This document shows, piece by piece, positions 8,288 to 23,634 of a stretch of 64,000 nucleotides of DNA; within the stretch, counting starts at the first letter, position 1, and each line of letters opens with the position of its first letter. The stretch spans positions 12,857 to 76,856 of the forward strand of contig JADCGS010000021.1 of the NCBI GenBank assembly GCA_020248865.1, in the 5' to 3' direction. Origin of the DNA: Burkholderiales bacterium. Lineage in GTDB: Bacteria; Pseudomonadota; Gammaproteobacteria; Burkholderiales; Burkholderiaceae_F. The notes below the pieces were generated by a model. That model was not told the origin of the DNA. It saw only the letters and a program-made list of their open reading frames with translations, and did no database searches. A program made the position numbers and the translations under genes.

Positions 8288-8629
8288 TCAGCCGATGGAG
8301 TCCAGCGCTGCGTCCGTGTTCGGCTTGGTGTCGAGTATCTTCAGGAAGCCGCTGATCTCGAACACCTCGCGCACCGAGGGGGCAAGGGAGCTCAGCATGA
8401 AACGTCCGCCGGTGTGCTGGGCGCGCTTGGCCAGCATCAACATCAGTCTCAGGCCCGCGCTGGAGATGTAGTCGAGCCGCTCCATATCGACAACGGCCTT
8501 CTCCCCCGGCCCTGCGAAGAGGCGGCTCAGCCCCTTTTCCACTTCGCCGACGTTGGCGCTGTCCAGCCGCCCCTTCAGAGCGATGACGCAGACACCCTGG
8601 CGGTCGATTTGAACGAGTTCCACGGACAT
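8288..8629 (-). CDS. STAS-domain anti-sigma-factor antagonist (SpoIIAA/RsbV-like)
   Basis: 113 aa. MSVELVQIDRQGVCVIALKGRLDSANVGEVE ... DMERLDYISSAGLRLMLML, where the conserved phospho-Ser context is DYISSAGL. GGAGGG RBS upstream of ATG 8629. Confidence 0.9.
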   Translation of the reverse strand: MSVELVQIDRQGVCVIALKGRLDSANVGEVEKGLSRLFAGPGEKAVVDMERLDYISSAGLRLMLMLAKRAQHTGGRFMLSSLAPSVREVFEISGFLKILDTKPNTDAALDSIG

Positions 8630-20691: not shown

Positions 20692-23634
20692 TCAGTCGCC
20701 CGCCGCCCGCTCCAGCTCCGCCACCATGCGCGCGATGCGGTCAGCCAGTTTTTCGGTGGTCAGCGCCTCGCGCAGGCGCTCGATCATCAGGGGGAAGGCG
20801 AAGGGGGTGGGGCGGGACAGCTCGTGCAGCACCACCTTCTGCGCACGCATGCCCGCCAGCGCGCTGCGCAGGCGGGCCAGATCCAGTTCCTGCTCCAGCA
20901 CCTCGCGGTCGGCCTGGCCCAGCAGCAGGTTGGACGGGTCGTACTTTCGCAGCACCTCGTAGATCAGGCTGGAGGAGGCCTGCAGCTGCCGCGCCGACTT
21001 GGGCTGGCCCGGAAAGCCGGTGAAAACGAGCCCGGCCACCCGGGCAATCTCGCGGAACCGGCGGCCGGCGAGCTCGCCGGCGTTCAGGCTGGCCAGCACG
21101 TGCTCGAGCAGATCGTCCTCGGCCAGCAGCGGGCTGCCCGGCCGAAACTGCGGCAGCCACGCGATGTCGGCGCTCGCCAGCAGCTCGAAACCGTAGTCGT
21201 TGACCGCGATCGAGAAGGTGGCCGGCTGCGTGCGGCCGGCGCGCCAGGCGATCAGCGAGGCGATGCCCAGGTGCGCCAGCCGGCCGGCAAAGGGGTAGAC
21301 GAACAGGTGCCGCCCCTCGCGCGAGCGCATCGTCTCGACCACCAGCCGCGCGCGCGTGGGCACGCTGGACCAGCGCTTCTGGATGGCCAGCAGCGGCAGC
21401 ACCCGTTGCATCTCCGGCGCCAGTTGCGCCGGCGCGGCCGCGCCGGCGAGCGCCTCTTCCAGCTCGCGCAGAACCGCGTCGGCCATCTCGACCGACAGCG
21501 GCAGCTTGGTGCCCATCCAGCGCGGCACCGCGCCCGAGCGGCTGCGCGCCGGCTGCACGACGGCGGTCATGTCCTGCACCCGCACCAGTTCCAGCACCTT
21601 GCCGCCGAAGGTGAACACATCGCCCTTGCGCAAGCGGGCGATGAAGCCCTCCTCGACAGTGCCGAGCGTGCCGCCGCTGGCGTACTTCACGACCATGGCG
21701 GCCTCGGACACGATGGTGCCGACCGACATCTTGTGGCGGCGCGCGATCTGGGCGTCGGGCACGCGCCAGATGCCCTCCCCGTCCTGGCGGATGCGGTGGT
21801 ACTCGGGGTAGGCGCGCAGGGACTCGCCGCCGCGGCCGGCGAAGTCGAGCACCCACTGCCACTCGGCGTCGGTCAGCCCGGCGTAGCTGGCGGTGTCGCG
21901 CACCTCGGCCAGCAGTTCATCCTCGCGAAAGCCGGTGCCCAGCGCCACGCTGACCACGTGCTGCACCAGCACGTCCAGCGGCTTGCGCGGCGCGTTGCGC
22001 GACTCCACCGCGCGGGCCGCGGCGGCCTTCTGCGCCGCGGCGGCCTCCACCAGCTCGAGCGCATGGGTGGGCACCAGGGTCACGCGCGAAGCGCGGCCCG
22101 GCGCATGGCCGCTGCGACCGGCCCGCTGCAGCAGCCGCGCCACGCCCTTGGGCGAACCGACCTGCAGCACCCGCTCCACCGGCAGGAAGTCCACACCGAG
22201 GTCGAGGCTGCTGGTGGCCACCACCGCCTTCAGCGTGCCGGCCTTCAGCCCCGCCTCGACCCACTCGCGCACCGCCTTGTCGAGCGAACCGTGGTGCAGG
22301 GCGATCAGCCCGGCCCACGCCGGCCGCGCCTCGAGCAGCGCCTGGTACCAGATCTCGGCCTGCGAGCGCACATTGGTGAAGACGATGGCCGACGCGCCCT
22401 TGGGCAGCGATTCGATCTCGCGCACCACCGGCGCCACCATCTGGATGCCCAGGTGCCCGCCCCAGGGAAAGCGGCCGGTATCCGCGGGCAGCAGGGTGTC
22501 GATGACGATGCGCTTGTCGATCCGGCCCTCGATCAGCGCACCGGCGCGACCGGCCAGCAGCACGTGCATGGCGTCGGCCAGGTTGCCGAGGGTGGCGCTC
22601 AGGCCCCAGACGCGCAGGGGTGCGGGATGGCTGCTCGATTCCCTCTCCCCGCTCACGGGGAGAGGGTCAGGGTGAGGGGCGCCCTGCCCGCTCGCTGCAC
22701 GTTCGCCGGAAGCCGAAGACCTCCCCTCACCCCAACCCTCTCCCCGTGATCGGGGAGAGGGCGCGCTCAGTGCCCCCTCTCCCCGTGATCGGGGAGAGGG
22801 GGCACTGAGCGCGCCGCCTTGCGCCGTTGCAACTGCCTCGTCCCAGTTGTATTCCCGTGAGCGGGGAGAGGGAGCACTGAGTGCGCCGCTTTGTGCCGTA
22901 TCGGCTGCCTCACCCCCGCCCTCTGCCGATGAACCGGCAGAGGGAGAAAACCGGCGCCGCGCCAGCGCGCGCAGCCGCGCCAGCGCCAGTTGCACCTGCA
23001 CCCCGCGCTTGTTGCCGATGAGTTCGTGCCACTCGTCCACCACCACCAGCGCCAGTCCGGCGGCCAGTTCGGCGCTGTCGGCGCGGGTCAGCAGCAGCGA
23101 CAGGCTCTCGGGCGTGGTGACCAGCACCTCGGGCAGGCGGCGGCCCTGGCGCGCGCGCTCGGCGCTGTCGGTGTCACCGGTGCGCACGCCGACCTGCCAG
23201 TCGAGGCCCAGTTGCGCCAGCGGTACAGCGAGCGCGCGCGCGGTGTCGGCCGACAGCGCGCGCATCGGCGTGACCCACAGCAGGCGCAGCCCGCCGCCCC
23301 GCACGCGGCCGGCCAACGCCTCGTTGAGCAGCGCCAGGTACACCGCGTAGGTCTTGCCCGCGCCGGTGGTCGCGTGCAGCAGGCCGCTGCGCCCGGCGGC
23401 CACCGCGTCCCACACCTGGCGCTGGAACTCGAAGGGCCGCTGGCCCTGTGCGGCAAACCAGCCCTCGGCGCTGGGCAGCGCGAGCTGGCGGCCGCGGTCG
23501 CGCGTGGCTGCCGCGGCGACGGCCTGCTGGGCCGCCTGCTGCTGCACGCGCTCGGCCCGCGCCTGGGCCGCGCGGCGGGCGCGCAACTGGGTGCCGACAT
23601 TGGGGCCCGGGGGCAGGCGGCGCGACTCAGCCAT
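20692..23634 (-). CDS. lhr: Lhr-type DEXH-box helicase (ligase-associated DNA damage response helicase) carrying an in-frame repeat insertion
   Basis: 980 aa. Motif [14 protein letters not shown], motif [11 protein letters not shown], motif [11 protein letters not shown], motif [11 protein letters not shown]. Long Lhr-like C-terminal region. Confidence 0.9.
22641..22944. repeat. Cluster of five REP-type hairpins (CCCTCTCCCCG-N4-CGGGGAGAGGG family) inside the helicase ORF
   Basis: Hairpins at 22641-22666, 22736-22761, 22775-22800 (extended to a 54-bp palindrome at 22761-22814) and 22919-22944, plus a truncated copy near 22853-22896. Confidence 0.9.

Follow-up and report, generated by a model that had tools for sequence, protein, structure and literature searches.

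The contig JADCGS010000021.1 of assembly GCA_020248865.1 includes a 64,000-nt stretch, referred to here as the window, that carries an intact gene for a ligase-associated Lhr-Core DEXH helicase in which a cluster of palindromic repeats is inserted in frame (Table 1). The genome, named G000, is a 3.52-Mb metagenome-assembled genome (MAG) of an uncultured Burkholderiaceae lineage with a GC content of 70% and 49 contigs. The insert lies between the helicase motifs II (DEWHE) and III (SAT). It probably consists of clustered copies of a small GC-rich palindromic repeat that belongs to this genome, and the helicase, into which the copies are translated, probably still functions.

The 980-amino acid (aa) product of the gene showed a score of 1054 bits with the TIGR04121 profile, passing the curated equivalog cut-off of 850, and the match is divided in two stretches located around the insert. 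The four Pfam domains DEAD, Helicase_C, WH_Lhr and DEAD_assoc are all present in the order that is found in the family. A model obtained with AlphaFold2 (AF2) from 117 homologues (predicted TM-score, pTM, 0.73) has the predicted Lhr-Core fold, with M. smegmatis Lhr 5V9X_A as the best PDB match (E 1.2e-39, target-normalised TM 0.77). Profile, domain order and fold therefore agree with those of the ligase-associated Lhr-Core family, and one difference is a loop of 107 aa located after motif II and before motif III.

An earlier note on this DNA, made from the sequence alone, had described five copies of a hairpin between nucleotides 22641 and 22944, within the helicase open reading frame (ORF) and between the two motifs, without stop codons or frameshifts. 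Translation confirmed that all copies are inside the ORF 20692-23634, and that the insert is read through in the minus-strand frame with no stop. The five copies turned out to be three perfect CCCTCTCCCCG-N4-CGGGGAGAGGG hairpins at nucleotides 22641-22666, 22736-22761 and 22775-22800 (100 shuffles gave an expectation of none), a variant copy in which the stem changes are compensated (CCCTCTGCCG-N6-CGGCAGAGGG, nucleotides 22919-22944), and a half copy, named D, that consists of the right arm only (nucleotides 22854-22873). The first two hairpins are part of the repeat units A and B, which together form a tail-to-tail dimer. The third, hairpin C, is the center of a perfect palindrome, which had been described as 54 bp long and proved to be 56 nt in length. 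This palindrome includes 39 nt that are private to the window assembly and that the alignment places at nucleotides 22777-22815. The insert also holds a pair of 72-nt direct repeats (nucleotides 22782-22853 and 22854-22925) that are 76% identical. Unit E defines the upstream, N-terminal boundary of the insert.

A weak terminator-like site was found at this same edge, and its T-run is part of the T-rich head of the repeat unit. A promoter scan of the insert found none, and no target-site duplication could be recognized at the helicase insert.

The AF2 model assigned a predicted local distance difference test (pLDDT) value below 50 to exactly amino acids 230-336, with block means of 25-31 and no secondary structure. 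The flanks were predicted with confidence: a helix (amino acids 209-227) precedes the insert, and a strand (amino acids 341-346) that leads into motif III follows it. A Pfam search found no domain inside the insert. In the structure prediction, which the earlier note had proposed as a check, the insert thus came out as a disordered loop and the rest of the Lhr-Core fold was modelled with confidence.

Table 1. Location of the insert, its parts and the other features described in the text. Coordinates without a contig number are those of the window; G000:C numbers designate contigs of the genome.
Feature	Coordinates	Strand	Remarks
Ligase-associated Lhr-Core DEXH helicase gene, 980 aa	20692..23634	-	Intact; ORF list and translation
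Motif II, DEWHE, aa 200-204 (within VVVDEWHEL)	23023..23037	-	Translation; invariant in 117 homologues
Motif III, SAT, aa 346-348 (within GLSATLGN; SATLGN is aa 346-351)	22591..22599	-	Translation; invariant in 117 homologues
Insert, 321 nt, aa 230-336, in-frame Pro/Ser/Gly/Glu/Arg-rich loop	~22627..22947	-	Absent from relatives P0008, P0012, P0013
Repeat unit A: hairpin 22641-22666, TCA, tail GGGTGAGGGG	22641..22679	+	Triplex-motif type
43-nt spacer between tail-to-tail units A and B	22680..22722	.	Coding; homologous to part of the sister-species insert (L030/P0009)
Repeat unit B	22723..22761	-	Inverted with respect to A (92% complementary over 39 nt); inverted pair
Perfect palindrome, 56 nt, around hairpin C (22775-22800)	22760..22815	.	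26-nt arms, 4-nt loop
72-nt segment, one copy of the direct repeat	22816..22887	.	Holds half-hairpin D; absent from 943-aa allele P0007
Repeat unit E: CCCTCTGCCG-N6-CGGCAGAGGG, CGG, GGGTGAGGC	22908..22945	-	Inverted with respect to A, 76% over 38 nt
Weak terminator-like hairpin and T-run (TTTTCT)	22954..22968	-	Sense direction, upstream edge of the insert; consensus match only
UvrA-like ABC ATPase, double-length, 2244-aa frame (L021)	G000:C11:6490-13221		Two in-frame clusters
DUF2126/transglutaminase protein (L022)	G000:C18:27283-31227		Repeat in frame
IcmF-like fused mutase (L114)	G000:C3:100272-103865		Repeat in frame
Type I methylase HsdM (L116)	G000:C24:32298-34085		Two single units in frame
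metG, MetRS (L115)	G000:C13:54644-57382		Repeat in frame, brackets DUF559 domain
Intergenic array (L025)	G000:C15:6846-7269		Starts right after a TAG stop; two tail-to-tail dimers
IS200-like Y1 transposase (RAYT-like) gene, 231 aa (L028)	G000:C5:74362-74688		Single; HUH-like and Tyr motifs
MPE/PdeM phosphoesterase gene (L120)	G000:C28:42171-42800		TIGR04123, 219 bits (cut-off 150); intact, contig other than that of the helicase

Orthologs, alleles and selection on the helicase

The interval from DEWHE to SATLGN could be read in 79 of 80 representative orthologs, which included proteins from Variovorax, Hydrogenophaga, Undibacterium, Cupriavidus, Limnobacter, Pseudomonas and others. It is exactly 40 aa long in 66 of the 79 and 152 aa long in the window. 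The nearest relatives that lack the insert are 84-85% identical to the window helicase and have an interval of 45 aa. The addition amounts to 107 aa when compared to these relatives and to 112 aa when compared to the canonical interval, in agreement with the figure of about 100-115 aa that had been given before.

Independent assemblies were used to check that the insert is real. The same insert was found in five other contigs (from JGI, three ENA samples and an NCBI MAG) that encode proteins 93-98% identical to that of the window, with the same order of its parts in all five and with both flanks belonging to the same gene in the same frame. The alleles differ in length: the others encode proteins of 967 aa, with 39 nt fewer than the window, or of 943 aa, with a further 72 nt fewer, and these 72 nt are one copy of the direct repeat described above. 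The 39 nt that are private to the window consist of an inverted copy of the left flank and a second hairpin. All six alleles examined are in frame.

The ratio of nonsynonymous to synonymous substitution rates (dN/dS) outside the insert was 0.145-0.18 at a synonymous divergence (dS) of approximately 0.12, as determined over about 2.6 kb in a comparison of two insert-bearing lineages. Therefore purifying selection on the gene persisted with the insert in place. Inside the insert there were 0-7 changes, which are too few sites to interpret dN/dS.

The repeat family and its hosts

The hairpin of the helicase insert belongs to a family that is dispersed in the genome. The full repeat unit, of about 38-42 nt, starts with the hairpin, in which a loop separates the pyrimidine arm CCCTCTCCC from the purine arm GGGAGAGGG; 3 nt and the mirror tail GGGTGAGGG follow. 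In reverse the tail reads GGGGAGTGGG, which mirrors GGGGAGAGGG of the purine arm, a register that was checked. A genome-wide count, which had also been recommended in the earlier note, yielded 29 exact CCCTCTCCC-N8-GGGAGAGGG matches, versus 0-4 in genomes of the same genus, 19 strict hairpins, and 48 relaxed hairpins in 20 clusters. Full three-stem units numbered 25 (none with the reversed control), and tail-to-tail inverted pairs are frequent among them. Neither of the two outcomes that would have refuted the earlier note was seen: not all orthologs have a homologous segment, and the hairpin has copies elsewhere in the genome.

Of the 20 clusters, about 8 lie within coding sequence and keep its frame. 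They are located in six genes, those of the helicase and of five other proteins (Table 1), whose identities were confirmed by Pfam. Clusters were called coding when the codon-position GC signature was present on both flanks and the frame was unbroken. In the UvrA-like protein the clusters are found near positions 8435-8629 and 11219-11426 of contig C11, and the gene also has a 39-nt piece in three tandem copies, which are translated as LPLPAVGDQGQR three times. The hsdM gene has orthologs with empty sites, which define a unit size of about 42 nt, and a 6-nt direct repeat (GTCATT) lies on either side of one of its two units, with none at the other site. The helicase is not a special case within this genome.

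Outside of genes, the intergenic array L025 includes two dimers, each of them followed by tandem half-units with a period of 37 nt, which is not a multiple of three. The periods of 39 and 72 nt inside the helicase, as compared to the 37 nt of this array, fit a filter imposed by the reading frame.

Small palindromic repeats that are translated in intact genes have been described before, and include repetitive extragenic palindromic (REP) sequences with GTAG or CGTC tags as well as the Rickettsia palindromic elements (RPEs) of Ogata et al. 2000 (cited in Di Nocera, De Gregorio and Rocco 2013, PMC3733652). Many of the hosts of intragenic REPs are replication or repair genes (uvrA, uvrD, recBCD, ligase) or genes for tRNA synthetases, the reported clusters encode 43-82 aa, and permissive loops or mutator effects have been suggested to account for them (PMC3733652). 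The statement in the earlier note that such repeats are rare inside an essential-motif region of an intact ORF needs correction, as in repair genes they are not rare in the literature. As it is the case for REPs and RPEs, the insert is composed of small palindromic repeats present singly, as a dimer and as a cluster, in frame and in a gene that remains intact: the family is dispersed, there are orthologs without the segment, the frame is kept, and the gene is under purifying selection. The differences are that the unit of the window has a third, mirror G-rich block of the triplex-motif type, and that the 107 aa encoded by its cluster exceed the largest number reported. No consistent GTAG or CGTC tag was found beside the stems, where the listed copies have T-rich or varied bases. 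Since there is no tag at the stem end, membership in the GTAG- or CGTC-tagged REP superfamilies was rejected. The hairpins had been named REP-type; as compared to a classical REP, a BoxC/TMECO-like triplex-motif repeat is the more precise designation.

The TMECO/BoxC/PIT intrastrand triplex motif has the structure CCCTCNCCC-N3-6-GGGNGAGGG-N3-GGGNGAGGG, is reported as always intergenic in E. coli K-12, and is associated with instability (Holder et al. 2015, PMC4666352). The three 9-nt blocks, CCCTCNCCC, GGGNGAGGG and, after N3, GGGNGAGGG, all match in the repeat of the window, and its reversed tail mirrors the purine arm as required for a purine-motif triplex, a structure that is putative here. 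Both elements also share common inverted pairs, a sharp contrast in copy number between close relatives, and unstable loci. On the other hand, the first loop of the window repeat has 8 nt between 9-nt stems (or, described as an 11-bp stem, a 4-nt loop), outside the N3-6 of the motif, and the strict TMECO consensus has no copies in the genome, while a relaxed consensus has 25. Strict membership was rejected for these two reasons, and the element is referred to as TMECO-like. A further difference is the location, as the E. coli K-12 copies are intergenic and about 8 of the 20 clusters in this genome are translated in frame. In the literature examined we found no report of the triplex-motif class inside genes.

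As in the REPIN/RAYT system (PMC3733652), the genome has inverted hairpin doublets and a single Y1_Tnp gene. However, no stem or tail motif is present within 1.5 kb of this sole gene, and on this basis mobilization of the repeat by a RAYT was rejected. In several related genomes the hairpins bracket genes or domains of a DUF559 nuclease instead of a Y1 gene (see below).

In-frame palindromic insertion is thus already described, and the window case is a large and still-changing example of it. What is new is limited to the host and the site, the size of 107 aa, the type of element, and the direct view of in-frame change between strains.

Origin and maintenance of the insert

In a tree of the helicase core, inserts are found in two separated clades. 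In the clade of MAGs that includes the window, 12 of 19 members have an interval of at least 60 aa, and in the other the six insert-bearing Polaromonas MAGs nest among lineages with the 40-aa interval. Strict triplex-type units with three different stem sequences occupy the helicase loop of the window, of the genome G010 and of one Polaromonas MAG, and none was found in the other 98.6 kb of these three loci. Genomes G002 and G015 have in common a hairpin with its tail, of which either genome has a single copy, located in the helicase and nowhere else. Because of this single-copy condition we rejected the possibility that the inserts of other lineages are copies of their own dispersed families, and the unit of G002 and G015 is a shared fossil. 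This shared unit, and the homology of the 43-nt spacer to the insert of the sister species, point to an old insertion in the MAG clade with later turnover and loss and with fresh units in the lineage of the window. The repeated use of the helicase loop could mean that it is a permissive site or that it is a preferred target.

Two contigs deserve mention in relation to this tree. The helicases encoded by JBLMYK010000335.1 (L035), which is labelled Gemmatimonadota, and by JBHJND010000379.1 (L043), which is labelled as a Caballeronia novacaledonica MAG, nest inside the uncultured Burkholderiaceae clade, and both contigs are probably mis-binned.

The insert is a tolerated, still-evolving and translated repeat cluster in the helicase. 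A possible sequence of events starts with repeat units entering the loop-coding DNA in an ancestor of the Burkholderiaceae MAG clade, after which the currently active family may have added later units within the older ones or next to them. The cluster would grow and shrink by replication slippage between direct copies, and hairpin-primed template switching could also reshape it, since such a switch would yield exactly a perfect 56-nt palindrome with 39 private nucleotides. Variants that shift the frame or add a stop would be removed by selection on the helicase, therefore only multiples of three would survive, and the loop itself would be neutral or nearly so for the protein. The site of recombination or replication pausing that had been proposed for this region finds support only as local recombination or slippage that changes the cluster, as seen in the 39- and 72-nt in-frame indels. 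Of the explanations offered in the earlier note, the tolerated expansion of a surface loop is the one best supported, by the disordered model (pLDDT 25-31) and by a dN/dS of about 0.15 outside the insert.

The same note had also considered a recently inactivated gene, the frame of which would be open across the insert by chance. In favor of this possibility, the insert is located between two essential motifs, stops are rare in DNA of 70% GC, where five of the six frames of the hairpin are open, and the Exo-Lig-Lhr-MPE set is scattered in the genome. However, the low dN/dS was obtained from lineages that bear the insert, no motif is damaged, the family score passes the curated cut-off, the six alleles are all in frame, and the PdeM/MPE gene is intact elsewhere in the genome, so that we regard inactivation as very unlikely. 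An artefact of short-read MAG assembly, by which repeats would have been mis-joined in the assembly graph, could be suspected in a MAG of 49 contigs in which the 39 nt that create the palindrome are private to one assembly, but it is hard to reconcile with the occurrence of the insert, with the same order of parts, in five contigs from different samples and pipelines and with flanks that are the same gene in the same frame. As an explanation of the insert it is extremely improbable; if limited at most to the extra 39 nt, an artefact is possible, although we doubt it.

A quite unlikely alternative is that the insert has been co-opted, either at the protein level as an interaction or regulatory linker or in cis through hairpins on the mRNA or DNA. 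The hairpins could, for example, attenuate expression, or form a 'contingency' tract of variable length by which the repair helicase is tuned. In favor of co-option, the insert was kept while a dS of about 0.12 accumulated, inserts occupy this loop in two clades, the mRNA of the insert is very strongly structured with a weak terminator-like site at its upstream edge, and its length differs between strains. Moreover, the six host proteins include two that act in repair, namely the helicase and the UvrA-like protein, and a mutator effect has been speculated for REPs in repair genes (Di Nocera et al., PMC3733652). Against co-option, the sequence of the insert is unconserved between lineages and absent in the clade that is 84-85% identical and in 66 of the 79 orthologs, it includes neither a Pfam domain nor predicted structure, and the changes inside it are too few to show constraint. 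The other hosts, MetRS, the IcmF-like mutase, the DUF2126 protein and HsdM, are functionally unrelated, a pattern consistent with a filter that retains the repeat where long proteins have permissive loops.

Some points weigh against the interpretation of the insert as a tolerated repeat cluster. Its disorder is an AF2 prediction, and transcription and translation would have to cross a fold of -273 kcal/mol (z = -13). The window MAG assembly is the only one with the 39 nt to which the palindrome owes its perfection, and these could be an assembly error. The dN/dS values show constraint on the gene, not neutrality of the loop. The history of the MAG clade can be read as one old insertion with losses or as several gains. 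Finally, there is no mobilizing enzyme linked to the repeat, and the Y1/RAYT-like gene is unflanked.

The Lhr-Core site that has the helix after motif II on one side and the strand of motif III on the other tolerates more than 100 extra residues, and has done so repeatedly in nature, a property that makes this loop useful for engineering or tagging the helicase. A BoxC/TMECO-like repeat, of a class described as strictly intergenic in E. coli, is found here in frame in six proteins of one genome, still changing by whole units between strains that are 98% identical, filtered by the reading frame and physically tied to DUF559 nuclease genes. There is also a warning for annotation, as low-complexity stretches of the type 'PSPxxxGEG' in GC-rich proteomes can be translated repeat DNA.

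DUF559 nuclease and ligase-associated genes

The sole DUF559 (Vsr-like nuclease) domain of the genome is complete and in frame inside metG, where it follows the synthetase core and precedes the C-terminal tRNA-binding domain, and keeps the nuclease motif LDF..ExDGxQH. It is bracketed by CCCTCTCCC hairpins in G000 and likewise in G006 (L117), G018 (L131) and G023 (L130). A DUF559 domain in the metG frame is present in these last three genomes and also in G007 (L119), where no flanking hairpin was found at a 9-bp hairpin threshold. G022 (L129) has flanking hairpins and a DUF559 match in an 888-aa frame, and probably carries a metG::DUF559 fusion as well. The in-frame fusion is conserved across five or six genera. 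Altogether, at least seven genomes of this Burkholderiaceae family have DUF559 genes that are bracketed by the hairpins. Stand-alone DUF559 genes show a similar arrangement: that in contig C68 of G024 (L132) has hairpins on both sides, that in contig C21 of G007 (L118) is preceded by a repeat-like peptide and followed by one hairpin, and that in contig C36 of G017 (L133) has repeat-like peptides on both sides. Among 25 genomes of the family, seven have both the repeat and DUF559, one has the repeat only, one has DUF559 only, and 16 have neither (Fisher p = 1.3e-4, uncorrected for phylogeny).

These arrangements suggest, as a tentative and on balance improbable proposal based on sequence comparisons, that the CCCTCTCCC-type repeats might be the ends of a mobile element with the DUF559 nuclease, not a RAYT, as its enzyme. 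If this were true, the helicase loop would be one of several permissive loops colonized repeatedly, and the proposal fits with the finding that different triplex-type units have come to occupy this loop independently in Polaromonas and in G010. Confirmation of the link would provide a candidate mobility enzyme for BoxC/TMECO-like repeats.

The partner genes of the helicase are not adjacent to it, as they are in ligase-associated Lhr-Core systems. The ligase and Exo genes are presumably located in the window 7.7 kb from the helicase, with what we take to be an iron-uptake island between the ligase and the helicase; the placement of the ligase and Exo comes from another note of the same kind. 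The MPE gene is on another contig. The ligase-associated repair system is thus probably complete in this genome, although its genes are scattered.

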